A DNA stretch of 64,000 bases from an uncultured Bacteroidales bacterium (GCA_964477035.1 CAYZCW010000003.1:31540-95539), one strand, 5' to 3'; positions 560-61,364 are shown, counted from the first letter of the stretch. Made by a program: numbers and translations. Notes: generated from the letters alone by a model not told the origin.

Positions 560-618
560 GGCACGGGCTGTTGGGTGGTTGCTGCCGCCGGGGGCGCCTG
601 GCCCGTCCGACGAAAAAT

Positions 619-686: not shown

Positions 687-1466
687 TCAGTCCCCCCTCC
701 TGCTTTTCTCGGGCAGGTACTTCCAGTAACGGACCGGCATGGCGCGGCGCATCTGCCGGTGGTTGCGGCGCTCCAGGATGTTGACGGCATCGTAGTAGCC
801 CTGCCAGAGCCGGCAATAAAAATCCTCGTCCAGGTCGCGGACCCCGGTGGCCAGGTTGCCGCTGCGCAGGTCGATGCGGTGGTTCTCCAGGACGATCTCC
901 CTGACCGCCAAGGTATCGTAATAGATGCCATACTGTCTGCGGGTGTCGTAGATCACCCACTTCTGTCCCCCGTAACGGTTCCTGAAATGCCGGGCCAGCA
1001 AACGAAGGATGTCGTGGTCGGGCGCCACCGGGGCGAAGTACATGCCGTCGGCCGTCTTCTGAAAGCGCACCAGCCCGTGGAAACGGTGCACTTCAAGCTT
1101 CACCCGCCGGGCCATCTGCACCAGCCGGAACACGGTTTCATCGAGCAGGTTCAGGTGGTACCCGGGGTCCCCTCCACGAAACACCTTTTCCAGGTACTGC
1201 CACAGCAGCATCTCGGTTTGCGGCTCCTGCGCCAGGAAAGCCACGTGCACCAGCCGGGCATTTTTCATGCTTGTTTTCTGTTCCAGCCCCTCCCACACCC
1301 GCCGGGCCTGGGTGTCGTTTCGTCGGATGGGCAAGAGGTCTCCCAGGGGCATCTGCACGCCCGGGCGTTCTGCCAGGATGGCTTCGGGGCGCTGCCGGCC
1401 GGCGAAGGCCCGGAACACCACCGTGAGGAAGCCTTCGAAAGTGCCGTCGTAAGTGTAGGTGGGCAT
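687..1466 (-). CDS. TIGR03915-family probable DNA metabolism protein (DUF4130), partner of the radical-SAM protein upstream
   Basis: 259 aa starting MPTYTYDGTFEGFLTVVFRAF, with FHGLVRFQKTADGMYFAPVAPDHDILRLLARHFRNRY. This is the typical family sequence, and it lies directly downstream of the TIGR03916-type gene. Confidence 0.8.
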   Translation of the reverse strand: MPTYTYDGTFEGFLTVVFRAFAGRQRPEAILAERPGVQMPLGDLLPIRRNDTQARRVWEGLEQKTSMKNARLVHVAFLAQEPQTEMLLWQYLEKVFRGGDPGYHLNLLDETVFRLVQMARRVKLEVHRFHGLVRFQKTADGMYFAPVAPDHDILRLLARHFRNRYGGQKWVIYDTRRQYGIYYDTLAVREIVLENHRIDLRSGNLATGVRDLDEDFYCRLWQGYYDAVNILERRNHRQMRRAMPVRYWKYLPEKSRRGD

Positions 1467-1501
1467 TGGTTGTTGGTTGTTGGTTGTTGGTGGTTGGCCA
1501 A
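1467..1501 (-). repeat. Heptanucleotide tandem array (about 5 units; minus strand reads CCAACAA x3, CCACCAA, TTGGCCA) abutting the start codon at 1466
   Basis: The plus strand reads TGGTTGT TGGTTGT TGGTTGT TGGTGGT TGGCCAA. It occupies almost the whole 38-nt spacer between the stop at 1505 and the ATG at 1466. Confidence 0.85.
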
Positions 1502-6330: not shown

Positions 6331-6825
6331 TCAGGAGGCGATCTTCAGATGGTGGGAAAAGAGGATGAACTCCCGTCCCGTGAGGCGGGGCGGGGGGTCT
6401 GTTTTGGAAGTACCGGATAAAGACTCCGGCTCCCTGTCGGTCAACAGGCCTTCGCCTGAAGCGAGGGCATGCAATACCACCAGGGCGGGGGCTTCCACCC
6501 GGACCACCGGGCGTTCGGAGGCCAGCTCCGCATCGTTTTTCAGGTACACCACCTCGATCCGGCAGCATCCGTCCGGCCCGTTCAACCCGCAGGCAGGAGG
6601 TTCAGCTGCCGGTCCCGGCAAGGCACAGCAGGCGGTTTCGCCAGCTCCATCCATGGGGTCGGCCTTCCCGGCATGGCCGCAGCAGTCCGGCTGTGCCGCC
6701 GCAAAAACGATGCCGGTGGTGTCACAGCCCATGCAGTGATGCACCAACAGCCTCATCCCGGTAAAGGAGACAAGAAAAAAGGCCGCAAGGAGCAGGGCGG
6801 TGGTCTGTCGGATGGTTTGAATCAC
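6331..6825 (-). CDS. Cys-rich small membrane protein (resembles the Bacteroidota HYC_CC_PP family)
   Basis: 164 aa with an N-terminal TM helix, then the HHCMGC, DCCGH, ACC, CG and GCC motifs and a PPP motif near the C-terminus. It sits between the HMA gene and the TonB receptor. Confidence 0.6.
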   Translation of the reverse strand: MIQTIRQTTALLLAAFFLVSFTGMRLLVHHCMGCDTTGIVFAAAQPDCCGHAGKADPMDGAGETACCALPGPAAEPPACGLNGPDGCCRIEVVYLKNDAELASERPVVRVEAPALVVLHALASGEGLLTDREPESLSGTSKTDPPPRLTGREFILFSHHLKIAS

Positions 6826-9231: not shown

Positions 9232-9301
9232 CCAACCGCCAACAACCAACCGCCAAAAGCCAACCGCCAACAACCAATAGCCAACCGCCAACAGCCAACC
9301 C
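9232..9301 (+). repeat. Heptanucleotide tandem array, 10 units (CCAACCG CCAACAA CCAACCG CCAAAAG CCAACCG CCAACAA CCAATAG CCAACCG CCAACAG CCAACCC)
   Basis: Strict 7-nt periodicity starting directly after the era stop (9229-9231). It ends 10 nt before the der ATG at 9312. Confidence 0.9.
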
Positions 9302-10619: not shown

Positions 10620-10702
10620 GGATGGGGTGCAAAAGAGGCCTTCCCCATCCGACGATTAAAACAAAAAACCAAGGTGCAGACGGCCGCATCGCATACCAAG
10701 CC

Positions 10703-16373: not shown

Positions 16374-18506
16374 CTAGACCCCTTTCATGGAGAGCGCGAT
16401 CCGCCGGCGCTCCGTATCGATCTGCACCACCCTGACCGTCACCTTCTGGTTGAGCCGGACCACCTGGGAAGGATCGCTCACGAATTTGTCCGCCAGCTGG
16501 CTGATGTGCACCAGCCCGTCCTGGTGGACGCCCACATCCACAAACGCCCCGAAGGCCGTGATGTTGGTCACAATGCCCGGCAGTACCATCCCCTCCCGGA
16601 GGTCCCCGATGCTGTTCACGCCGCGGTCGAACTCAAACAGGTCGAAGCCCTTCCTGGGATCCCGCCCGGGCCGTGCCAGCTCCTGCAGGATGTCCTTCAG
16701 GGTGGGCAGTCCCGTTTTCTCCGTCACATAATCTTCGAGGCGGATGCGCTGTCGAAGGCCATCGTCCTTCATCAAGGCGTGAATGTCCACCCCCAGGTCG
16801 CGGGCCATGCGCTGCACCACCCCATAGCTTTCGGGATGGACGGCGCTGCGGTCCAGGGGGTTGGCAGACCCGCTCACCCTCAAAAAACCGGCCGCCTGCT
16901 CGAAGGCCTTGGCGCCGAAGCGGGGCACCTTCATCAGGGCCTTTCTGGAAGGGAAAGGGCCGTTTTCGTTGCGCCAGGCCACGATGGCCGATGCCAGGGC
17001 CGGCCCCACGCCCGAGACGTATGTCAGCAGCTCCCGGCTGGCCGTGTTGAGTTCCACCCCCACCGCGTTCACGCAGCTCATGACCACATCGTCAAGGCTG
17101 TTCTTCAGCATTTTCTGGTCCACATCATGCTGGTACTGGCCCACCCCGATCGACTTGGGATCGATCTTGACCAGCTCCGCCAGGGGATCGGCCAGCCGGC
17201 GGCCGATGCTCACCGCCCCCCTCACGGTCACGTCATAGTCCGGAAACTCCTCCCGGGCCACCTCGGAGGCGGAGTAGACCGAGGCCCCGCTTTCATTGAC
17301 CATCACGGCCATGACGTCCCGGTCGAAACGGGTGCTGCGCACCAGGTTCTCGGTTTCCCGCCCCGCCGTGCCATTGCCGATGGCGATGGCCTCCACCTGG
17401 TAGGCACTGACCAGCGACTGCAACTTGGCCGAAGCCTGTTTGAACTGGTTCTGTGGCGGATGGGGATAAATATTTTCATTGTGCAGCAGCTTTCCTTCGC
17501 GGTCGAGGCACACCACCTTGCAACCGGTGCGGAAGCCCGGATCGATCGCCATGATCCGCTTTTGCCCAAGCGGGGGCGCCAGCAAAAGCTGCCTCAGGTT
17601 TTCGGCGAATACCCGGATGGCCTCCTTGTCGGCCCGTTCCTTGAGCTGGTTGCGCATTTCCGTTTCCAGGGAGGGCTGCAGCAGACGTTTGTAAGCGTCC
17701 CGCACGGCCTGGCGCAGCTGCTCTCCGTCTTCGCCCGGGCTCCTCACAAAGCGTTTTTCCAGGCGGTCCAGGGCATCTTCTACCTCAGGGGCCACCGCCA
17801 CCTTCAGGAAGCCCTCCTTCTCCCCCCGCAACATGGCCAGGATGCGGTGGGACGGGGCTTTGCCAATGGCCTCGCTCCACTCAAACCAGCTGGCATATTT
17901 TTGTCCCGCTTCTTCCTTGCCCTTGCTCACGCGGCTGCATATCTGCGCCTGCTGGAGGAAAAGGCGCCGCATGGAAGCCCTGGCACCGGCATCCTCGTTC
18001 ACCCATTCGGCCATGATGTCCCGTGCCCCGGCAAGTGCTTCTTCGACGGATGCGACCCCCTTCTCCCCATCGATGAATGGCAGGGCTTCCCGCCCGGGGT
18101 CCTTGCCGCGCTGGTCCATGATCATCCTGGCCAGGGGTTCCAGCCCTTTTTCAATGGCCACACTGGCCCGTGTCTTTCGTTTCGGCCGGTAAGGCAGGTA
18201 CAGGTCTTCCAGTTCCGACAGCGTGGCCGCCTGCCGGATGGCCGACTCCAGATCCGGGCTCAGCTTGTCCTGTTCCCGGATGGACTGCAGGACGGCCTCC
18301 CGCCGTTTGTCCAGTTCAGCCAGCCGGGTCAGGAGGTCGCGGATACGGGCCACCGCCACCTCATCCAGCGAGCCGGTCATTTCCTTGCGGTATCGTGCGA
18401 TGAACGGCACGCTGGCCCCGCCCTCCAGCAGGGACCCGGTCTTTTCGACCTGCCAGGGCCTTAGGGCACATTCCCTGGCGATGGTCTCTATATGATGCTG
18501 GTCCAT
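16374..18506 (-). CDS. tex: Tex-like RNA-binding transcription accessory protein (YqgF/HhH/S1 domains)
   Basis: 710 aa with the N-terminus VPFIARYRKEMTGSLDE, a RuvC/YqgF-like middle region, and a C-terminal S1 domain (GMVLPGIVTNITAFGAFVDVGVHQDGLVHIS). Confidence 0.9.
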   Translation of the reverse strand: MDQHHIETIARECALRPWQVEKTGSLLEGGASVPFIARYRKEMTGSLDEVAVARIRDLLTRLAELDKRREAVLQSIREQDKLSPDLESAIRQAATLSELEDLYLPYRPKRKTRASVAIEKGLEPLARMIMDQRGKDPGREALPFIDGEKGVASVEEALAGARDIMAEWVNEDAGARASMRRLFLQQAQICSRVSKGKEEAGQKYASWFEWSEAIGKAPSHRILAMLRGEKEGFLKVAVAPEVEDALDRLEKRFVRSPGEDGEQLRQAVRDAYKRLLQPSLETEMRNQLKERADKEAIRVFAENLRQLLLAPPLGQKRIMAIDPGFRTGCKVVCLDREGKLLHNENIYPHPPQNQFKQASAKLQSLVSAYQVEAIAIGNGTAGRETENLVRSTRFDRDVMAVMVNESGASVYSASEVAREEFPDYDVTVRGAVSIGRRLADPLAELVKIDPKSIGVGQYQHDVDQKMLKNSLDDVVMSCVNAVGVELNTASRELLTYVSGVGPALASAIVAWRNENGPFPSRKALMKVPRFGAKAFEQAAGFLRVSGSANPLDRSAVHPESYGVVQRMARDLGVDIHALMKDDGLRQRIRLEDYVTEKTGLPTLKDILQELARPGRDPRKGFDLFEFDRGVNSIGDLREGMVLPGIVTNITAFGAFVDVGVHQDGLVHISQLADKFVSDPSQVVRLNQKVTVRVVQIDTERRRIALSMKGV

Positions 18507-25762: not shown

Positions 25763-26569
25763 ACAGAAAACCATCCGACATGACACCGACCATGCACACA
25801 AGAGACCTGTTCCGCAGGTCTGCCAGGCGCCACAGGGGCCTCCTTCTTATGGCGGCACTGACCCTGTTGCTGCCCGCCTGCAGCCGGGACCGGCAACGGG
25901 ACACCAACATCGAACAGCCCGCCCACGAACTGGCATCACGCATCCTGGCCCCCGGCATGGGCACCATCGGGCTGGTCCAGGAGGGGAAGGTCTATGTCTA
26001 TTTCATCAACGAACAATACGCCTGGGTGCTGGACAAGCTCTCCCAGTTCAACATCCCGGAAGACAACAACGGCTTGCTCGCCATGGGCATGGGGACCATC
26101 GGGGTGGTGGAGGGAGGGGAGATCCGGTTCTACCGCCTGGATGCTTACAACAACTGGATCAGCGAAGAACGGTTCACATTCAGGCTGCCGCGAAGGTACG
26201 ACCGCCTCATGGCCATGAAAATGCCCTGGGAGATGGGGGTGATCGGCATCGAGCACCATGGGTTTACCGAGTTTTTCTATTTCAGTGAATCAGGGGAGTG
26301 GACCCAGGACGAAACGGCTGTCTTTGAGGTTCCCGAAGGCGTAGACCGCTATTTCCCGCTGGGAAGCATGATGATGGCGGGGGTGGACGGCCACCGCCTG
26401 GGGGTCTATGCCCTGCAGGCCGAGGGAGGCTGGCAGCTGCTGGAAAACCAGGTCCTCCGGCTGCCCGGCGGCTACGAGGCGATCATCCCCTGGGAGCCCG
26501 GGGTGCTGGCCGTCCTTCTGGAAGACCGCCTGGAGTTTTTCCAGCTGGAAACCGAGCAGGGTCGCTGGA

Positions 26570-29453: not shown

Positions 29454-29471
29454 GGGGTTTTTGGGGAGAAG

Positions 29472-29576
29472 TTGGCTATTGGCTATTGGCTATTGGCTGT
29501 TGGCTGTTGGCTATTGGCTGTTGGCTGTTGGGTTTAGGCTTTTGGCTGTTGGGGGTTGGTGGTTTGGCGGGGGTTG
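29472..29576. repeat. Heptanucleotide tandem array, 15 units (TTGGCTA x3, TTGGCTG x2, TTGGCTA, TTGGCTG x2, then 7 degenerate units)
   Basis: Strict 7-nt register read directly from the sequence. It lies between the divergent uvrA and MMPL genes. Confidence 0.9.
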
Positions 29577-29607: not shown

Positions 29608-31965
29608 ATGTGGGAAGTCATCGTTCGCATCATCCTTCGCAACCGCCTGACCATTCTGTTGGTCATCGGCGGCCTGACCGGCCTGATGGCCTGGCAGGCA
29701 GGCAGGGTGAAGATGTCGTACGAGCTGGCACAGATGCTTCCTTCCCACGACCAGGCCTTCCGCGACTACGAGCATTTCCGGGAAATCTTCGGGGAGGACG
29801 GCAATGCCGTATTCATCGGGATGGAGGATGAACATGTCCGCTCCCTGCCCGGGTTTCTGCAGTGGCAGTCCTTTACCGACAAGCTGGCCGCCATCCCCGG
29901 GGTCACCGGGGTGGTCAACCTGACCCGCCTTCCGCTGCTGGTACGCAATGACAGCCTCAGGCGGGTTGAGTTCAGGCCCCTGTTCGAAGGGGCACCGGCC
30001 GACCAGCATGCCCTCGACAGCTTGCTGTCCATCGGTTTCGACCAGTCCTTTTTTAAAGACCTGTTGTTCAACCCGCAAACGGGGGCCCTGCTGACCGTGG
30101 TCAGCCTCGACCGCGACATCCTCAACACCCCGGAACGCATCGACCTGGTCAACGCCATCAGGAAGGCCGGCCGCGCCTATTCCCTCGAGAGCGGCATTGA
30201 CCTGCATTACAGCGGACTGCCTTACATCCGGACCCAGACCATGAAGAAGGTGAACACCGAACTGAAGCTGTTCGTCCTGCTGGCCATGGTGGTGGCCTCC
30301 CTGGCCCTGTTCCTGCTGTTCCGGTCCTTCAAGGCGGTGCTGTTTCCCATGATCATCGTGGTCATCAGCGTGGTATGGGCCCTGGGGACCATCGGCCTGC
30401 TCGGGTATGAGATCACGATACTCAAGGGCATCATCCCCCCGCTGATCATCATCATCGGGGTGGAGAACTGCATCTTCCTGCTGAACAAATACCACCACGA
30501 ATACCGGGCCCACGGCAACAAGATCAAAAGCCTGGTGAGGGTGGTACAGCGGGTGGGCAATGCCACCCTGCTGACCAATGCCACGACGGCCGTCGGTTTT
30601 GCCACATTCATCATCACCGGCAACCGCATCCTGGTCGAATTCGGCATCGTGGCCGCCCTGAACATCCTATCGGTCTTCCTGCTCACCATCACCCTCATCC
30701 CCATCTTCTACAGCTACCTGGAGCCACCCAAATACCGGCACATCAGGCACCTGAACAACCGCCGGATGCAGCGAATGATCCGCGGGATCATCCGGGTGGT
30801 CAGCCACCACCGCGCCAGGGTCTATGCCGTGGCCGTGATTCTCCTTTTAGGCGGACTGGCCGGCATGACCCGTCTGCATACTTCCGGCAGCGTGGTGGAC
30901 GACATTCCCCACCGCGACCCGCTGTATACCGACCTGTTGTTTTTCGAACGCCACATCTCGGGCATCATGCCCTTCGAGGTCATGATCGAAACCGGCCGTC
31001 CGAACGGCGTGGTCCGCCCGGCCACCCTGGAGGCCATCGAGGCCTTGCAGGCGGAGATGGCCGCCATCCCTGAATTGTCCCGTCCCCTGTCCGTGGCCGA
31101 GGCCATGAAACTGGTCCGGCAGGCCTTTTACCGGGGCGAGCCCGCCATGTATGGCCTGCCCAACCGGCACGACCGCAACTTCATACAGTCGTACATCCCG
31201 GCCGGGTCCATGGGCGACCAGTCCCTGCTGCGGTCCCTGGCGGACAGCAGCCTGCAGACCACCCGCATCAGCGTGCAGATGGCCAATATCGGCACGAGGG
31301 ACATCCGACGCATTCAGGAGGCATTGCAACCCCGCATCGATTCCCTCTTTGACCCCGCCACCCACAAGGTCACCATCACCGGCACCAGCGTGGTCTTCCT
31401 CAAGGGGACCGAGTACCTGGTTAGGAACCTGCTGACCAGCCTGCTGTTCGCCATCGCCATCATATCGGTGCTCATGGCCCTGCTGTTCAGCCGCGCGCGT
31501 ATGGTGATCATCTCCCTGATCCCCAACCTGTTTCCGCAGATCCTGACGGCCGCCATGATGGGCTACCTGGGCATCCCCATCAAGCCGTCCACCATCATCA
31601 TCTTCAGCATTGCCCTGGGCATATCGGTCGACAACTCCATCCATTTCCTTGCCAAGTTCCGCCAGGAGTTGCGTCTGAAAAACTACCACATCAAGCATGC
31701 CGTGATCTCGGCCCTGAATGAGAGCGGGGTGAGCATGATCTATACCTATGGGGTGCTGTTCTTCGGTTTCATCATCTTCACCTTTTCGACCTTCGGCGGC
31801 ACCCAGGCCCTCGGCTACCTGATCGCCTTCACCCTGAGCGTGGCCCTGCTATCCAACCTATTTCTGATGCCATCCATCCTCCTCTCCCTGCACAAGCGGG
31901 TGGAAGGAACCCGCCTGGAGCGTTCCCTGCTGGGCAAGGCTGACCCATCCGACGGCTTGCTTTAA
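29608..31965 (+). CDS. MMPL/RND-superfamily exporter (HpnN-like, 12 TM, two periplasmic loops)
   Basis: 785 aa with two repeated halves. Each half has a TM1-loop-TM2-6 architecture and GIGVDN/GISVDN-type motifs (IIGVENCIFL, ALGISVDNSIHF). Confidence 0.85.
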   Translation: MWEVIVRIILRNRLTILLVIGGLTGLMAWQAGRVKMSYELAQMLPSHDQAFRDYEHFREIFGEDGNAVFIGMEDEHVRSLPGFLQWQSFTDKLAAIPGVTGVVNLTRLPLLVRNDSLRRVEFRPLFEGAPADQHALDSLLSIGFDQSFFKDLLFNPQTGALLTVVSLDRDILNTPERIDLVNAIRKAGRAYSLESGIDLHYSGLPYIRTQTMKKVNTELKLFVLLAMVVASLALFLLFRSFKAVLFPMIIVVISVVWALGTIGLLGYEITILKGIIPPLIIIIGVENCIFLLNKYHHEYRAHGNKIKSLVRVVQRVGNATLLTNATTAVGFATFIITGNRILVEFGIVAALNILSVFLLTITLIPIFYSYLEPPKYRHIRHLNNRRMQRMIRGIIRVVSHHRARVYAVAVILLLGGLAGMTRLHTSGSVVDDIPHRDPLYTDLLFFERHISGIMPFEVMIETGRPNGVVRPATLEAIEALQAEMAAIPELSRPLSVAEAMKLVRQAFYRGEPAMYGLPNRHDRNFIQSYIPAGSMGDQSLLRSLADSSLQTTRISVQMANIGTRDIRRIQEALQPRIDSLFDPATHKVTITGTSVVFLKGTEYLVRNLLTSLLFAIAIISVLMALLFSRARMVIISLIPNLFPQILTAAMMGYLGIPIKPSTIIIFSIALGISVDNSIHFLAKFRQELRLKNYHIKHAVISALNESGVSMIYTYGVLFFGFIIFTFSTFGGTQALGYLIAFTLSVALLSNLFLMPSILLSLHKRVEGTRLERSLLGKADPSDGLL

Positions 31966-32948: not shown

Positions 32949-33024
32949 GCCGGCCTGCATACCATCTGACCCTGCCGGCCGGGCGAAAGACCGGCAGATA
33001 CATCACCACCAAAGCCTGTCATCC

Positions 33025-36448: not shown

Positions 36449-36550
36449 TGAACACCAAAACAATCAAGTGATTGAGGCTCCCGTCGGATGGGTTTTCATG
36501 GGAGCCCGCAGGCATAATTTATAAAGGTTATAATTTGTAACTCGCCCCCC

Positions 36551-37537: not shown

Positions 37538-37553
37538 ATTATTAATAATTTTG
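37538..37553 (+). promoter_or_regulatory. Fur-box-like palindrome (ATTATTAATAAT) overlapping a -7 box (TAATTTTG) of the Fe3+ ABC transporter operon
   Basis: A perfect 12-bp palindrome made of two inverted AATAAT hexamers lies at 37538-37549. An exact TAnnTTTG match lies at 37546-37553, 20 nt upstream of the ATG at 37574. Confidence 0.4.
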
Positions 37554-37573
37554 GCATCCATTCTTATCGTCGG

Positions 37574-38707
37574 ATGCCCATGAAGTTCATTGACCGCATT
37601 TATAGAACAACAACCGGTTCCCGCAACACCCCGGAGCCACTCCCGTCGGGGCGCCCACCAAGTCGCCGGCCTTTCCTGACCCTGCTGCTGTCCGCCGGAG
37701 CCGCCGTCCTCATTCCCCTTGCTTTGCTGTGGGGCACCTCGTGTTCAGCACCCACCGAAGAAGTCAATGTGTACTCCGGCCGCCACTATCTGTCGGACGA
37801 ACAACTTTTCAGCCAGTTCACGGAGCAGACCGGCATCCGGGTGAACCTGATCAAGGCCGATACCGACCAGCTGATCCACCGTATGCGCCTGGAAGGGGCC
37901 TCCTCCCCGGCCGATTTGCTGATCACCGCCGATGCCGGACGGCTGGTAGGCGCTGCCGCCAGCGGACTGCTGCAGCCGATCGGCTCGAAACTGATGCAGG
38001 AGGTCGTACCGTCCGCCTTCCGTGACCCGGACGGACACTGGACCGGCCTGACCAAAAGGGCCCGGGTGATCGTGTACCACAAGGACCGGGTCGACCCCTC
38101 CGAACTGTCCACCTATGAAGACCTGGCCGGTCCGCAATGGCAGGGACGCGTCCTGGTGCGGTCCTCCCAGAACCATTACAACCAGACGCTGATGGCCTCC
38201 GTGATCGCCGCCCTCGGCCCCCAGGCGGCCGAAGAATGGGCGCATGGCCTCGTGACGAACATGGCGCGCAGCCCGCAGGGCAACGACCGCGACCAGGTCA
38301 AGGCGATGGCGGCCGGGGCGGGAGACGTGGCGATTGTCAACACCTATTACATGGGATTGTTGCTTCACTCGGCCAATGCGGAAGAACGGCAGGTGGCCGC
38401 ACAGGCCGGCATTTTTTTCCCGAACCAGCAGGGACGCGGCACCCACGTGAACATCAGCGGGGCCGGCATCGCGGCCCATGCGCCCAACAGGGACCATGCC
38501 CGCCGGCTCATCGAGTTTTTGCTTGGCGACGAAGCCCAAAGGGTCCTGTCGTCGGACAATTTTGAATATCCCGTATCGCACCGGGTGGAATGGCCCGAAC
38601 TGTTGCAGTCCTGGGGCAGCTTCCGCGAGGACACCCTCCCGCTGAGCAGGCTGGCGCCCTGGCTGCAGGAAGCCATGTTCGTCTTCCACCGGGCCGGCTG
38701 GGAGTAA
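37574..38707 (+). CDS. Fe(3+) ABC transporter substrate-binding protein (FbpA/AfuA type)
   Basis: Signal and TM region, then VNVYSGRHY...IRVNLIKADTDQL and VNTYYMG, typical of ferric-binding periplasmic proteins. Confidence 0.85.
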   Translation: MPMKFIDRIYRTTTGSRNTPEPLPSGRPPSRRPFLTLLLSAGAAVLIPLALLWGTSCSAPTEEVNVYSGRHYLSDEQLFSQFTEQTGIRVNLIKADTDQLIHRMRLEGASSPADLLITADAGRLVGAAASGLLQPIGSKLMQEVVPSAFRDPDGHWTGLTKRARVIVYHKDRVDPSELSTYEDLAGPQWQGRVLVRSSQNHYNQTLMASVIAALGPQAAEEWAHGLVTNMARSPQGNDRDQVKAMAAGAGDVAIVNTYYMGLLLHSANAEERQVAAQAGIFFPNQQGRGTHVNISGAGIAAHAPNRDHARRLIEFLLGDEAQRVLSSDNFEYPVSHRVEWPELLQSWGSFREDTLPLSRLAPWLQEAMFVFHRAGWE

Positions 38708-38718
38708 GTCCGCCAAGC

Positions 38719-40374
38719 ATGCCCCTGCCCATCCGACGATATCCAAAAAAAGCACGCTTCCTCAGCAACGGCTGGGTGCTCATCGCACTCATCACCTCCC
38801 TGCTGGTGGCCCTGCCCCTGCTGGTCATATTCCCGGAGGTATTCGTGTCGGGGGATGAGACCTGGCGGCACATCCTGCACCGGCTCATTCCGTCCTATGC
38901 CCTGAACACCTTGTTGCTGATGGCCGGAGTCGCCGCCCTGACGTTCCTGATGGGGGTCAGCACGGCCTGGCTGGTCACCCTGTACGACTTCCCGGGCAGG
39001 CGCTTTTTTCAGTGGGCGCTGATCCTGCCCATCTCCATCCCGGCCTACATCCTGGGCTTCACCTGGGCGGGGATCCTGGACTATACCTCACCGGTTTACG
39101 TGTTCCTGAGGAACCACTTCGGGGTGGACACCGGGCCCTACCTGCTGTTCAACATCCTGTCGCTGCCCGGGGCCATCCTGGTGCTGTCGCTTTCCCTCTA
39201 CCCCTATGTTTACCTGATCACCCGGGCCTATTTCATGAAACAGTCGGCCTCCCTGCTGGAAGTGGCTGCCTCGCTGGGGCGCAAACCCATGCAGGCTTTC
39301 TTCTCCGCCGCCCTCCCGCTGGCCAGGCCGGCCATCGTGGCAGGCATTTCTCTGGCGCTGATGGAGGTATTGAACGACTACGGACTGGCACGCTACTATG
39401 GCGTGGATACATTCACGACGGGCATCTTCACCGCCTGGTTCGCCTTCGGGAACGCCTCCGCGGCCATGAAGCTGTCGGCCTACCTGATGGTGCTTGTGCT
39501 GGCGCTGATCCTGCTGGAACGTTACCAGCGCGGACAGATGCGGTACGAAGTGGTGGGCAGCCATTACCGCCCGCCGGGGATCCGCCGCCTCCGCGGCCTG
39601 CGCCAGGCAGCCGCCCTGGGGCTCTGCCTGCTGCCCCTGCTGCCGGGCTTCATCTTCCCCCTCTCCATGCTGTTCCACTGGAGCCTGCAGACCGCGGCCC
39701 AGGTGCTGGACATCCGGTTCTGGGAACTCATCCGCAACAGTTTTCTGCTGGCCCTGGCGGCCTCGGCCGTGGTGGTGATCGTCAGCCTGTTCATCGCCTT
39801 TACGGTGCGCAGCTTCCCGGGCCGCCTGGTGCGGGCACTGGCGCGGATCGCCACCCTGGGCTATGCCCTGCCGGGCGCGGTGGTGGCCATCGGCATCATG
39901 GTGCCGTTCCTCTGGCTGGACGGCCGGCTGGCCGCAGCCATGCCCGGGCTGGGGGTCGCGCTCAGCGGCACCTGGTTTGCCCTGGTTTACGCCTATATGG
40001 TGCGGTTCCTGGCCGTGGGCTACCACAGCATGGAAAGCGGCATGGCCGGGCTTTCCCATTCGATGGACGAGGCCTCCCGCTCGCTGGGACATACAAACCT
40101 GAACACCTTGCGCAAAGTGATCCTGCCGTTGATGAAGGCGCCGGTGCTCAGCGCCACCCTGCTGGTGTTCATCGACGTGCTCAAGGAATTGCCGCTGACG
40201 CTGATCCTCCGTCCGTTCAACTTCGACACCCTGGCCATCAGGGCCTTTGAATATGCGTCGGATGAGCGGGTGGCCGAGGCGGCGCCGGCCGCGCTGATCA
40301 TCGTGCTGGTGGGGATCGTGCCGGCCTTCCTGCTTAACCGGATGATGGGGGGCAAGACCGTGCTGCATAGCTGA
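38719..40374 (+). CDS. Iron ABC transporter permease (FbpB type, duplicated MetI-like domains)
   Basis: About 550 aa with two permease halves carrying EAA-like loops (EVAASLGRKPMQAFFSAALPLARPA and DEASRSLGHTNLNTLRKVILPLMKAP). The ORF-track start at 38590 overlaps fbpA and was trimmed. Confidence 0.85.
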   Translation: MPLPIRRYPKKARFLSNGWVLIALITSLLVALPLLVIFPEVFVSGDETWRHILHRLIPSYALNTLLLMAGVAALTFLMGVSTAWLVTLYDFPGRRFFQWALILPISIPAYILGFTWAGILDYTSPVYVFLRNHFGVDTGPYLLFNILSLPGAILVLSLSLYPYVYLITRAYFMKQSASLLEVAASLGRKPMQAFFSAALPLARPAIVAGISLALMEVLNDYGLARYYGVDTFTTGIFTAWFAFGNASAAMKLSAYLMVLVLALILLERYQRGQMRYEVVGSHYRPPGIRRLRGLRQAAALGLCLLPLLPGFIFPLSMLFHWSLQTAAQVLDIRFWELIRNSFLLALAASAVVVIVSLFIAFTVRSFPGRLVRALARIATLGYALPGAVVAIGIMVPFLWLDGRLAAAMPGLGVALSGTWFALVYAYMVRFLAVGYHSMESGMAGLSHSMDEASRSLGHTNLNTLRKVILPLMKAPVLSATLLVFIDVLKELPLTLILRPFNFDTLAIRAFEYASDERVAEAAPAALIIVLVGIVPAFLLNRMMGGKTVLHS

Positions 40375-40419: not shown

Positions 40420-41475
40420 ATGAACACCCTTGAAATAAAAAACCTGCACAAGAAGTTCCCCGGAACCCAGGCCTATGCCGTGAGGGATTTCTCCCTGGAG
40501 GTCGCCCGGGGAGAGATCATGGCCCTGTTGGGAGAGAGCGGATGCGGCAAAACCACGATCCTTCGGATGATCGCCGGGTTTGAAACCCCGACCCGGGGGG
40601 AGATCCTGCTCAACGGCGAGGTGGTCAGCAGCGACCGGTTGTTTGTGGAGCCCGGGAAAAGAGGGGTCGGCATCGTGTTTCAGGACTATGCCCTCTTTCC
40701 GCATAAGACCGTGTGGGAGAACATCTGCTTCGGACTGTTCCGGCATGGACGGGAGGAAAGGAGCGAAAAGGCCGTGGCGATCATCCAGCTGGCGGGACTG
40801 CAAGGACTGGAACAGCGGTATCCGCACCAGCTGAGCGGCGGACAAAAACAACGGGTGGCCCTGGCGCGTGCGCTGGCCCCCGAGCCGGGCATCATCCTGT
40901 TCGACGAGCCGTTCAGCAACCTGGACTCCATGCGCAAGACCCAGATGCGCGAGGACATCCGCGACATCATCCGGAAGTCCGGCGCCACGGCCGTTTTCGT
41001 CACCCACGACACCCGGGATGTGCTGGCCATCGCCGACCGGGTCGCCGTGATCCGCGATGGGGTCAACCTGCAGACCGGCCCGCCCGGGGAGGTCTATGCC
41101 CATCCGACGAACCCCTATGTGGCCCGCTTCTTCGGCAAGACCAACCTGATGCGGGGCGTCATTGCCGAAGGGGGCTACCAGACCCCCATCGGTTTCATCC
41201 CGGCCGACCTGCCGCTGCCGGCGTCCATGAAAGAGGTGATGCTGTCCATCCGGCCGGGGCATTTTGAACCCGCCGGAGAAGAAGAGGGCTGTTTCTGCGG
41301 CAGGATCAAACGCCGAAGCTTCCTGGGCGAATACCTGGAAGTGGTTTGTGCGGTGAAGGGGCCCGGCGGACAGGAAACCGAGGTGGTGATCCACGCCCCG
41401 CCCGGGCACGACTGCGACAGCGGCATCTGCCATTTCCGGTACCGGGGCGACAGACATCCGGGGGTAATGGGCTAG
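40420..41475 (+). CDS. ABC transporter ATP-binding protein (FbpC/PotA type)
   Basis: Walker A is GESGCGKTT, the signature is LSGGQKQRVALARAL, and Walker B is ILFDEPFS. A C-terminal TOBE-like region follows. Confidence 0.9.
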   Translation: MNTLEIKNLHKKFPGTQAYAVRDFSLEVARGEIMALLGESGCGKTTILRMIAGFETPTRGEILLNGEVVSSDRLFVEPGKRGVGIVFQDYALFPHKTVWENICFGLFRHGREERSEKAVAIIQLAGLQGLEQRYPHQLSGGQKQRVALARALAPEPGIILFDEPFSNLDSMRKTQMREDIRDIIRKSGATAVFVTHDTRDVLAIADRVAVIRDGVNLQTGPPGEVYAHPTNPYVARFFGKTNLMRGVIAEGGYQTPIGFIPADLPLPASMKEVMLSIRPGHFEPAGEEEGCFCGRIKRRSFLGEYLEVVCAVKGPGGQETEVVIHAPPGHDCDSGICHFRYRGDRHPGVMG

Positions 41476-41558
41476 CGGGTGTCCCCTGGAGGATTGCCTG
41501 GCGGCCATCCCAATAACCCCCTCCGGGTGTCCCCTGGAGGATTGCCTGGCGGCCATCC
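41476..41558 (+). repeat. Two copies of a 35-bp direct repeat (CGGGTGTCCCCTGGAGGATTGCCTGGCGGCCATCC) with a 13-bp spacer
   Basis: The copies at 41476-41510 and 41524-41558 are identical, and the first starts right after the fbpC stop codon. Confidence 0.85.
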
Positions 41559-41580
41559 TCCAGGGAGGCAGGTCTCAAAA

Positions 41581-46117: not shown

Positions 46118-46491
46118 GGGGCTGATATGGATTAGACAGCAGGTCTGGTGGGAGTGTAAGCATGCCGAGCGTCGTGATTCTGGCTCGTAAATCCCAGGCG
46201 CATCGCCTATAAACGGCAACTCTAACTACGCAATGGCCGCTTAATAACAGTTATTAAGCGCCGTTTGTTTCCCGGGAAGCCACGCCTGGCCGCGTCCCCA
46301 AGGAAACATCATCAAAAGCCGGGATACGTCATGCAAGGCCCTGGTGCATGGCCGACAATCAAAAGGGCTCAGGCAAGCGGTGGGGCCGCCTGTTCCCAGC
46401 CGCAAGCCGAATCCAAAACTACAGGATAAGCATGTAGAAAGCATTTCTGTCGCTTGTTTGGACGAGGGTTCAAATCCCTCCAGCTCCACCA
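46118..46491 (+). ncRNA. ssrA: tmRNA (SsrA), tag peptide GNSNYAMAA
   Basis: The 5' end GGGGCTGATATGGATTAGAC and the 3' end GGACGAGGGTTCAAATCCCTCCAGCTCCACCA form the tRNA-Ala-like domain. The tag reading frame is GGC AAC TCT AAC TAC GCA ATG GCC GCT TAA TAA at 46215-46247. Confidence 0.95.
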
Positions 46492-47896: not shown

Positions 47897-48361
47897 ATCA
47901 CATGATTTAATTAAAGCAAAAGTCTGGCGCCAGGATCATTGTAACCCCTCCAGGATTTTCCGGAATGATGGCGTAAATCTAAATAAAAAAGTGTTTCACA
48001 AACTATTTATAGAAAAAATTTTGTGCTTTAACAGAAAGAAATGTTCCATTTTCCCGGAGCGGACAGGAACCCGTGCTTACAAACTTCCTGGAGCGGCCAA
48101 CCCATCCGACGAAAAAAATCTGAAAAAAATCCGGCGCGAAATGCTTGCCCGGAAACCCAAAAGCCGTAAATTTGTGAAGTTTTTTTTGGCAGCATCCTCA
48201 TTTTCAACAGCCAATGATTCAACCAACCGCCACCATGACATCCTCTTTCTTTTGGGTTTATGGCTGTGCTGGTAATTTCACCTAGGTTTCTTTCGCCCGC
48301 TTTCCGGTCCCGCCAAGGGCTCCCGGAGTTTCTGAGCATATACCGAAAGTACCATTGAATG

Positions 48362-49796: not shown

Positions 49797-49859
49797 CCAA
49801 TAGCCAATAGCCAACAACCAACAGCCAAAACCCAATAACCAAAAGCCAACAGCCAATAC
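49797..49859 (+). repeat. Heptanucleotide tandem array, 9 units (CCAATAG x2, CCAACAA, CCAACAG, CCAAAAC, CCAATAA, CCAAAAG, CCAACAG, CCAATAC)
   Basis: Strict 7-nt register. The array ends 9 nt before the pyrB ATG at 49869. Confidence 0.9.
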
Positions 49860-49868
49860 CCATTTCAC

Positions 49869-51346: not shown

Positions 51347-51478
51347 CCTTTCGGGCCGGCAAGAAGGAATCGCCCGGCCGGAAGCCTCCTGCTGAACCGG
51401 CAGGACGAAGTCGCCCGGCCGGGGACCCCATGCGGGACCCGGCCGGGCGATTGAATGGACCGCGGGTGGGAACGTCTG

Positions 51479-57996: not shown

Positions 57997-58024
57997 TGTT
58001 GGATATTGGCCATTGGCTATTGGA
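57997..58024 (+). repeat. Heptanucleotide array, 4 units in the G/T orientation (TGTTGGA TATTGGC CATTGGC TATTGGA)
   Basis: It fills the 31-nt spacer between the stop at 57994 and the ATG at 58026. Confidence 0.75.
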
Positions 58025-59261: not shown

Positions 59262-59537
59262 TCATTCCGCCTGATTGACTTCCTTCTCCCGCTCTTCCCT
59301 GAGCGCCCTCTTCTCGCTGCGATTCCTGCGCACACAACGGAAGTAGGTCCACAGCCAACCGGCAAAAAAGCCCAGGGCGAACAGGATCACATACAAGAGG
59401 TAACGGGGGCCTTCCAGGCTTATCCCCAGCAGTTTGATTGACGCGGGACCACGGTTCTGCAGGATGAAGACCAGAAGCAACAAAGCGATCAGCCCGTTGA
59501 GGATCCAGAACCAGGTACGGTCTTTTTTCTGTTCCAT
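59262..59537 (-). CDS. LapA-domain (DUF1049) small inner-membrane protein
   Basis: Reads MEQKKDRTWFWILNGLIALLLLVFILQN...YLLYVILFALGFFAGWLW, i.e. two TM helices, with a charged C-terminal tail. Trimmed from ORF 59262..59756. Confidence 0.7.
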   Translation of the reverse strand: MEQKKDRTWFWILNGLIALLLLVFILQNRGPASIKLLGISLEGPRYLLYVILFALGFFAGWLWTYFRCVRRNRSEKRALREEREKEVNQAE

Positions 59538-59673
59538 AGTCGGATGGGGTTGGCATTCGTTCAACCCAAATATACGAATAATAATCCTCCCTGCCACCCC
59601 CCTCCCATGCCGGATATTTTGATTCCGCCCCGGCCGCGGGACCGCCATGGCCGGGGCATCCTGCAAAGGCCTT

Positions 59674-61212: not shown

Positions 61213-61364
61213 CTGCTTTTTAGCCCAAAGATAGGCCCCGGAGGGATCTGGCAAAAGCCTGCCGGCCCCAGGGCTGTTGGCCGGCCCGGGGAATGGCAGA
61301 AAAAAGATGGCTTATGCAGGGGAAAGCCGGGCAGAACGCCGCTTTCCCGTCCGACGAAAAAAAT

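Follow-up and report, generated by a model that had tools for sequence, protein, structure and literature searches.

An over-represented, clade-specific 12-nucleotide word with an A-rich flank in an uncultured Bacteroidales lineage

The locus and its recurrent word

We analysed a stretch of 64,000 nucleotides from an uncultured Bacteroidales bacterium (GCA_964477035.1, CAYZCW010000003.1:31540-95539), hereafter the window, for the 12-nucleotide word CCCATCCGACGA, which recurs along it together with an A-rich 3' flank. The focal copy lies in a divergent spacer (Table 1), with the -7 box TAAATTTG about 54 nt downstream, and its flank holds two A7 tracts spaced by one helical turn. The window is a piece of ordinary housekeeping chromosome in which no transposase or recombinase genes were found, and its Der GTPase has its closest named homologues in Bacteroidales metagenome-assembled genomes. 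Gene calls are our own and were made by codon score. An earlier note, made from the sequence alone and offering no mechanism, had reported four exact copies on the plus strand (10644, 38728, 41099 and 48101), and all four are there as claimed; a fifth, on the minus strand at 1320-1331, had been overlooked. The variant copies that it listed are likewise all present, some of them 1-2 nt away from where they had been placed, and they include the shorter forms ACCATCCGAC at 25770 (+) and 6807-6816 (-) and GCATCCGACGA at 37567 (-).

The five exact copies of CCCATCCGACGA compare with 0.01 expected, and none of 100 dinucleotide-preserving shuffles reached five. A further five copies have one mismatch (602, 61346 and 31944 on the plus strand, 36481 and 59537 on the minus strand), so the view of the earlier note that the repeats are non-random holds well. 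Matches with up to two mismatches number 19 against 9.4 expected, the excess being just these ten close copies; two-mismatch copies taken alone are at chance level, which indicates that the word family is sharply defined and its specificity sharp. Heptamer tandem arrays aside, CCCATCCGACGA is the most repeated 12-mer of the window, and its sub-word ATCCGACG is found 19 times where a third-order Markov model expects 2.2. The density amounts to 0.08 exact copies per kb, or 0.16 per kb when one mismatch is allowed, and the over-representation to more than 100-fold over chance.

The word was then followed into metagenomes. Scanning all JGI metagenome contigs with the 17-mer CCCATCCGACGAAAAAA, which includes A5 of the flank, gave 99 matches, of which 13, at nine distinct loci, came from a single study that also holds the pyrB contig of this organism. 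These nine loci bear further copies of the word, while the other matches are singletons in unrelated DNA. The window and the nine loci together form a lineage sample of 150 kb (contigs of this sample are given below by their L numbers) with 27 copies at up to one mismatch: 17 exact copies against 0.03 expected and 10 one-off copies against 1.0 expected. Eight of the 27 were reached through a seed that requires the A-run. This corresponds to about one copy, exact or one-off, every 6 kb of the genome. On the other hand, scanning the species genome collection for the 14-mer CCCATCCGACGAAA gave single matches only, spread at random over all phyla, scanning viral contigs with a 16-mer returned seven single, random-looking matches and no phage link, and a literature search for the word and its complement retrieved PCR primers only. 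The feature is real, statistically robust and clade-specific, and the word can serve as a sharp marker when contigs of the clade are binned; the nine distinct 17-mer loci belong to this clade.

Chance, or a coincidence of coding, has a negligible probability as an explanation. It is true that the core spells common peptides (HPT, YPT, IRR, SDE) and that 8-mer matches within conserved motifs are ordinary, as in the QHPTQ of pyrB; the caution of the earlier note that the pyrB copy (50251) could come from codon usage is correct, this being merely an 8-mer HPT match. For the copy in fbpC (41099) the same caution is only half right, since the probability of spelling the word, given the peptide and the codon usage, is p=0.02, and for the copy at 1320, which uses the rare codons CGA CGA, the spelling has p=0.0002 given the peptide. 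A synonymous-codon model expects 0.023 exact coding copies in the window, where two are observed by the gene calls (p=2.7e-4) and three with a corrected start of fbpB; in the lineage set it expects 0.11 where seven are observed. Codon usage is thus not the source of the coding copies, and the non-coding copies are even more enriched. Chance is excluded by the shuffles and the synonymous-codon model together. Codon-aware frequency and positional bias, the two points on which the earlier note had made the finding depend, both favour a real feature, and the CCCATCCGACGA family is explained neither by codon usage nor by a known RNA family nor by a mobile element.

Table 1. Copies of the word and further features. 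Positions are counted from the first letter of the window unless a contig is named.
Feature	Position	Strand	Context
Exact copy (focal)	48101..48112	+	divergent spacer of 460 nt; 237-aa unknown gene (-) on one side, 460-aa CobW/MipZ-like gene (+) on the other
A-rich flank of the focal copy	48111..48131	+	11-nt tandem duplication GAAAAAAATCT x1.9
Exact copy	10644..10655	+	24 nt past the Der stop; 48 nt before the S4/Hsp15-like ATG (10703)
Exact copy	38728..38739	+	codons 4-7 (P-I-R-R; rare CGA CGA) of an fbpB-like ABC permease, ATG 38719
Exact copy	41099..41110	+	within the ABC ATPase gene fbpC (..VYAHPTNPYVA..); sisters have CCCATCCGACAA here
Exact copy	1320..1331	-	codons 46-49 (P-I-R-R) of a TIGR03915/DUF4130 putative DNA-repair gene
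One-mismatch copy CCCGTCCGACGA, then A-run	602..613	+	antisense to both flanking genes
One-mismatch copy CCCGTCCGACGA, then A6	61346..61357	+	antisense to both flanking genes
One-mismatch copy (..ACGG)	31944..31955	+	encodes the final residues (PSDGLL*) of an HAE3/MMPL transporter
One-mismatch copy (..ACGG)	36481..36492	-	loop and 3' arm of a hairpin, AOR/SLT divergent spacer
One-mismatch copy (..ACTA)	59537..59548	-	5' untranslated region, runs into the ATG of a LapA-domain gene
Two-mismatch copy GGCATCCGACGA	37567..37578	-	plus strand reads TCGTCGGATGCC, at the fbpA-like ATG
Partial copy ACCATCCGAC	25770..25779	+	abuts ATG 25780
Partial copy ACCATCCGAC	6807..6816	-	codons 4-6 of a secreted Cys-rich protein
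Heptamer array	9232-9299	+	
Heptamer array	49797-49862	+	
Heptamer array	29471-29552	-	
Heptamer array	1466-1497	-	
Heptamer array	58005-58023		
Heptamer array	L166, L241		
fbpA 5' hairpin	37553-37578		window
fbpA 5' hairpin	L240 ~17845-17875		
fbpA 5' hairpin	L241 ~18315-18340		
Low-GC islands	L160 1-2000 and 5900-7700		38-46% GC in 58-63% GC DNA
Repeat family TCGCCCGGCCGG	51370-51450 and 32975-32986		four copies
Direct repeat gggtgtcccctggaggattgcctggcggccatcc, twice, ~48 nt	41476-41560		right after the ABC ATPase stop
Tandem array, ~13-15-nt units (..aaccagggccggc..)	L241 19490-19700		fbpA-fbpB spacer
tmRNA gene	46118-46491		tag peptide GNSNYAMAA

Flanks and RNA-level searches

The A-rich 3' flank belongs to the element. 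AAAA follows directly in 3 of 11 unbiased non-coding copies, compared with a background of 1.8% (p~9e-4), which confirms the A-run that the earlier note had described, and a second A-rich block stands at +20..+23 on the same side. Across the copies, nothing is conserved on the 5' side of the word except the absence of C at -2, and neither an arrangement of -35 and -10 elements of the extracytoplasmic function (ECF) sigma type nor an extended upstream consensus was found when looked for.

No secondary structure is shared among six folded contexts (z-scores -1.7 to +0.7). Across the whole window, Rfam 15 at the gathering threshold matches only the transfer-messenger RNA (tmRNA) and two tRNAs, and in the focal spacer a search at an E-value threshold gave only sub-threshold eukaryotic or unrelated matches; a terminator scan of this spacer showed no terminator-like site. 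Four partial inverted partners of 7-8 nt were found, by which the word could form a hairpin: the pair 10620/10644, where the copy is the 3' arm opposite GGATGGGG at 10620-10627, the 5' untranslated region (5'UTR) of fbpA, contig L192 and copy L160-9416.

Placement relative to genes, frames and strands

The word is about ten times denser in non-coding than in coding DNA; non-coding DNA makes up 9% of the window and has six of its ten copies (p=8e-5). Within genes it is found mainly near the ends: in the lineage set, 6 of 13 coding copies fall within the first 50 codons (p=0.004; both strands contribute) and three within the last 50. All three sense frames are used by coding copies, giving P-I-R-R (1320, 38728), P-S-D-E/G (31944, L173) or H-P-T (41099, L140, L160-8225, L160-9416), and antisense frames are used as well, giving SSDG/V, FFVGW within a signal peptide and FFRRMG at an N-terminus. 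Some copies occur far into a gene, at its 3' end or where two genes converge. The bias is therefore toward gene boundaries and weakly constrained DNA generally, that is spacers, first and last codons and signal peptides. The link with start codons proposed in the earlier note stands insofar as the proximity is real, but the copies have either orientation and no fixed distance, and the proximity is part of this wider bias. A hand count of copies in genome-maintenance genes (DUF4130, PIF1 helicase, RNase HII, the flanks of YifB/ComM, and UvrA of the sister genomes described below) was suggestive of enrichment and not significant.

Promoters of the Bacteroidota type, TAnnTTTG, are readily recognised around many copies, and their offsets to the word vary, with the box on either side. 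Relative to the transcription start the word ranges from about -115 to +12 and into coding DNA. Among non-coding copies, placed by recognisable -7 boxes and start codons, the offset is about -115 for the gene of aldehyde:ferredoxin oxidoreductase (AOR; copy 36481, in the spacer shared with a lytic transglycosylase, SLT), about -80 for the gene at 48359 and about -65 for rmlA and lipB, the rmlA -7 box being 53 nt downstream of copy 31944. The complement of the word lies at the predicted transcription start of the ClC channel gene, where, on the minus strand, copy 602 comes 5 nt past the -7 box TATTTTTG and 42 nt before the ATG. Next to the ATG, within the 5'UTR, the word is in sense orientation for lapA (the box TATATTTG begins 26 nt upstream of copy 59537, with 18 nt between box and copy), a U32 peptidase, a patatin-like gene and a response regulator, and in antisense orientation for fbpA and L160-13380; in L218 it lies between convergent genes. 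Copy 61346 starts 7 nt past the Rid stop, upstream of the YifB/ComM promoter, and abuts a GC-rich hairpin.

With respect to the local gene, about 16 of the 27 lineage copies are sense and about 11 antisense, the antisense ones including copies within coding regions. This mixture, with the variable geometry, argues against an RNA element or a single regulatory architecture. Complementarity to ribosomal or small RNA, which the earlier note had suggested looking for, is unlikely as a general explanation because about 40% of the copies are antisense to the local gene. Contigs with several copies have strand counts of 7:3 (the window), 3:3, 2:1 and 1:1, and no clear relation was seen between the strand of the word and the sign of the GC skew.

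Origin of the copies and the sister genomes

Three metagenomic sister genomes (L240, L241 and L242) are fully syntenic with positions 19.6-41.5 kb of the window, and their MMPL protein is 80-82% identical. Each of them is represented by about 20 kb, and L242 ends before the fbp operon. At the start of fbpB and in fbpC, L240 and L241 read CCCATCCGACAA or ..CTA in place of the window's exact word; the fbpB copy (38728) is kept in both at the same position as CCCATCCGAC.A, despite the change of an amino acid (CGA/CTA/CAA). Where the MMPL gene ends, and likewise within the AOR-SLT spacer, the sisters have unrelated homologous sequence instead of the window's copies, and at a UvrA site and a polyprenyl-synthase site it is the sisters that have near-copies, absent from the window. 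In the orthologue of the gene at 25780, L240 carries ACCATCCGACGA followed by A7 at the gene start, on the strand opposite to the window's partial copy and within the probable N-terminal codons MKRFFFVGW.

Copies arise by substitution at pre-existing sites and not by insertion. The H-P-T copy at 41099 aligns without gaps to ABC ATPases of solved structure in the PDB, which have EKPG or LRPK at the same place, so it was made by substitution. Likewise, the spacer copy at 36481 takes the place of homologous sequence of about the same length, and since this stretch differs in sequence in the sisters it is a gain by substitution; the copy at 31944, being absent from the sisters, is a gain in this lineage.

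The core ATCCGACG is itself enriched about 8-10-fold in two of the sisters, with 8 occurrences against 0.8 expected in L240 and 5 against 0.5 in L241 (GC 54-55%). No such enrichment is seen in L242 (GC 51.5%), nor in a pair of short contigs from a further close relative, nor across 62 kb of DNA from more distant relatives (76-81% Der identity). Furthermore, the low-GC islands of L160, which carry HsdM and AbiE genes, hold no copy, while the flanking native DNA holds six, in what is a small sample.

A candidate word acting on DNA itself

An asymmetric exact core, present in both orientations and in every frame, gained by substitution, placed in weakly constrained DNA, restricted to a small clade, absent from foreign islands and flanked by AT-rich sequence on one side only, points to a constraint or a drive on the DNA itself. 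Among well-understood systems, this signature belongs only to the uptake sequences of Pasteurellaceae and Neisseriaceae. We hypothesise that CCCATCCGACGA with its A-rich tail may be a clade-specific recognition word of uptake or recombination type acting on double-stranded DNA, comparable to the DNA uptake sequences (DUS) and uptake signal sequences (USS) of other bacteria; of the readings compared we rank this one first, as possible, and hold it tentatively. A sequence-specific DNA-binding protein would recognise the word and so mark 'own' DNA for uptake or recombination, and copies would spread through biased uptake or gene conversion. They would build up by point substitution and persist where constraint is lowest, in spacers, in first and last codons and in signal peptides.

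The published properties of uptake sequences match the word point by point except in density and dyad pairing (PMC2817400). Uptake sequences are non-palindromic, occur in both orientations, are under-represented in coding DNA, sit at poorly conserved residues and are absent from foreign genes (PMC2817400), and here too the copies have both orientations independently of the direction of transcription, use several frames, are depleted from coding DNA and fall at weakly conserved positions. They are also common to related species and lacking in recently acquired DNA, the latter two on a small sample. The USS of Pasteurellaceae, with a 9-bp core AAGTGCGGT in a 30-bp three-part motif, similarly combines an asymmetric GC-containing core with AT-rich segments on one side, and is likewise found in both orientations, in several gene frames and in spacers, depleted from coding DNA, at poorly conserved residues, made by substitution and common to related species (PMC2817400). 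The DUS of Neisseriaceae, 10-12-mers, resemble the word in being 12-nt, non-palindromic and strongly enriched in non-coding DNA (about a third of DUS are in open reading frames), and their clade 'dialects' resemble the clade-restricted variants seen here, such as CCCATCCGACAA and ..CTA at sites shared with the sisters. DUS have the receptor ComP. USS hosts, for their part, are demonstrably competent with biased uptake; the present word belongs to another phylum and is unrelated in sequence. Natural competence is documented in Bacteroidales (Porphyromonas gingivalis) and in Flavobacteriales (Riemerella) (PMC3268665, PMC8459023).

Several observations weigh against an uptake-type word. USS are present at about 0.8 copies per kb (1,471 in the 1.83 Mb of H. 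influenzae), so that the density found here is 5-10 times below that of H. influenzae or Neisseria, and falls short of the hundreds to thousands of perfect copies, about one per kb, that characterise uptake sequences. DUS commonly form close dyad pairs acting as terminators, whereas we found the four partial inverted partners only, and no canonical dyad-pair terminators or terminator-like sites. The window copies are spaced no more evenly than chance would place them, and hot spots occur, six copies lying within 13 kb of L160. Two of the exact window copies are old coding sequences that the sisters have in common with one mismatch. YifB/ComM is the only competence-type gene within the window, the sample covers only 150 kb and was partly chosen by the A-run seed, and the enrichment at gene 5' ends could equally reflect a regulatory role or a promoter-proximal DNA-binding protein. 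Moreover, adjacent copies alternate in strand in 14 of 17 cases (p=0.006; window, L148, L160 and L218), and every one of the six pairs less than 1.5 kb apart is inverted (p=0.016). The segments between inverted pairs are syntenic in the sister species. None of the models that we considered accounts for this alternation of strands.

To our knowledge, only two bacterial families fill their genomes with a long asymmetric word through sequence-biased uptake. A third and independent case in Bacteroidales, if true, would make such self-recognition more widespread and point to a new sequence-specific DNA receptor; for a lineage not in culture, it would also open a way to genetic manipulation and to the tracking of strains. 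That this is the first uptake-signal-like 'self' word outside Proteobacteria, by which the clade would mark its own DNA with CCCATCCGACGA and the A-tract for preferential uptake or recombination, implying a sequence-specific receptor in a competence system of the Bacteroidota type, is a further reading that we regard as doubtful. Should the word turn out to be a protein site at gene starts or a recombinase site instead, it would still represent a new clade-specific, genome-wide system.

Alternative explanations

The main rival, which we consider somewhat doubtful, is that a transcription factor or nucleoid-associated protein peculiar to the clade would bind the word, in either orientation, at promoters and the 5' ends of genes, with the A-tract serving as a bend. 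Most non-coding copies are indeed in spacers that contain promoters, several of them preceding an ATG by 5-66 nt or a TAnnTTTG box by 40-100 nt, rmlA and lipB have an identical geometry (+53 from the motif start to the -7 box), coding copies cluster within the first 50 codons whichever the strand, and one ABC-transporter operon has three sites, two of them kept in the sisters. An operator or regulon would however be expected at a consistent promoter position and near related genes, while here the offsets vary, reaching into coding DNA, the neighbouring genes are unrelated and without a functional theme, and copies occur deep in genes, at 3' ends and between convergent genes. The steep fall to chance at two mismatches is also unlike a degenerate operator family. 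An element acting at the RNA level in translation-initiation regions, as the target of a small RNA or RNA-binding protein or as one half of a local hairpin, is unlikely. It would fit the sense copies at or just before start codons (59537, 25770 and 38728; L148-8899, L173 and L196), the retention of the fbpB copy in the sisters even with an amino-acid change and the partners able to form hairpins, but not the antisense copies, some of them within coding regions; nor was there a common fold, an Rfam match or a candidate small-RNA gene with the complement and a terminator.

The alternation of strands and the inverted close pairs would be compatible with the core site of a site-specific recombinase of the global invertase type, its copies working as inverted pairs, and in L148 two exact inverted copies flank a 125-bp segment with a TATCTTTG promoter box between divergent genes, a geometry in keeping with the 100-800-bp promoter segments that such inverted repeats flank. 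The sites of Mpi-type global invertases at the invertible promoters of Bacteroidales, found in the same order, are similarly short, recur near promoters and tend to inverted pairs; the known Mpi consensus is unrelated to the word. Here, however, many copies are single, inversion between most of the pairs would turn gene bodies round or join unrelated genes (602/1320 in the window, L160-8225/9416, L218), the same loci are collinear in independent assemblies from different samples with no alternative orientation seen, and no recombinase gene was found in the window or the examined loci; we regard this explanation as quite unlikely. Very unlikely, too, is an oriented signal of chromosome maintenance, whether Chi-like (for AddAB or RecBCD) or orienting FtsK (FtsK orienting polar sequences, KOPS). 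Chi is non-palindromic, chromosome-wide, present roughly once per 5-10 kb and acts on DNA; one copy per 6-12 kb falls within the range of Chi density in E. coli, and the 7:3 strand excess of the window puts the G-rich complement on the strand indicated as leading by a mostly negative GC skew. Known Chi and KOPS sites nevertheless have 5-8 nt, compared with 12-17 nt here; Chi is co-oriented with replication and not concentrated in spacers, whereas the word has mixed orientation within single contigs, a strong non-coding preference and an A-rich flank. HIP1, a cyanobacterial palindrome of 8 bp (GCGATCGC), is another clade-specific sequence, hugely over-represented in coding and non-coding DNA and of debated function, and it differs from the present word, of 12-17 nt, asymmetric and with an A-tract, in being a palindrome and much denser. 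Finally, the small clade, the spacer enrichment, often beside GC-rich hairpins, and the tendency to inverted pairs could recall the ends or scars of a small mobile element, such as a miniature inverted-repeat transposable element (MITE), a repeat of the repetitive extragenic palindrome type with its associated transposase (REP/RAYT) or a transposon terminal repeat. We regard this as highly improbable: the copies have only the 12-mer and the A-run in common, 12-13 of them are coding and align gaplessly, the segments between pairs are syntenic in sisters that lack one of the copies, copy 36481 replaces homologous sequence of similar length, and no transposase gene is nearby. Nor do the copies form an imperfect palindrome or an inserted unit confined to spacers, as REP, bacterial interspersed mosaic elements (BIME) and MITE do. 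A mobile-element origin was rejected on the gapless protein alignment and the sister synteny.

Other features of the locus and lineage

The 37567 copy, in its plus-strand reading, is the loop and 3' arm of a conserved 5'UTR hairpin located directly at the fbpA-like ATG. This hairpin, at the start of the 5'UTR, follows closely on a conserved TAATTTTG box and extends to the ATG, and it is kept between species by compensatory changes (GGCATCC/GGATGCC, GGGCATCC/GGATGCCC and GGGCATTC/GAATGTCC); through it, translation of the ABC-transporter operon may be controlled. L241 has a long tandem array that occupies its fbpA-fbpB spacer; neither the window nor L240 has this array. After fbpC, the ~48-nt direct repeat ends in an inverted segment (ggaggat..atcctcc) upstream of tRNA-Pro. 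The secreted Cys-rich protein at 6825 (-) has an apparent GTG start just 5 nt downstream of a TATTTTTG -7 box, a distance that suggests a leaderless mRNA, and its message is probably of this kind.

Tandem arrays of 7-nt units (CCAACAG, CCAATAG, CCAACCG or CCAACAA, 3-12 copies) stand directly upstream of start codons, in gene sense, at Der, pyrB, UvrA and the DUF4130 gene. Similar arrays are present in the sister L241. They recall the intergenic TAACTGA heptamer repeats of Beggiatoaceae (PMC4679880) and, in a host whose translation does not depend on Shine-Dalgarno sequences, may serve as 5'UTR elements. Of the second repeat family, TCGCCCGGCCGG, three copies are in the convergent spacer between pyrI and the M28 gene, where two of them form a long GC-rich hairpin, and one follows rmlA; the unit may be a common terminator or REP-like.

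The low-GC islands of L160 are defence islands, with genes for a type I HsdM methylase and for an AbiEii/DUF6088 toxin-antitoxin pair; the pair is an insertion flanked by duplicated pieces of a DUF1847 gene. The closest relatives have a GC content of 42-55%, against 60% here, so GC has risen markedly in this lineage, with the spacers staying at about 49%. The window also contains the tmRNA gene, whose tag peptide is listed in Table 1.

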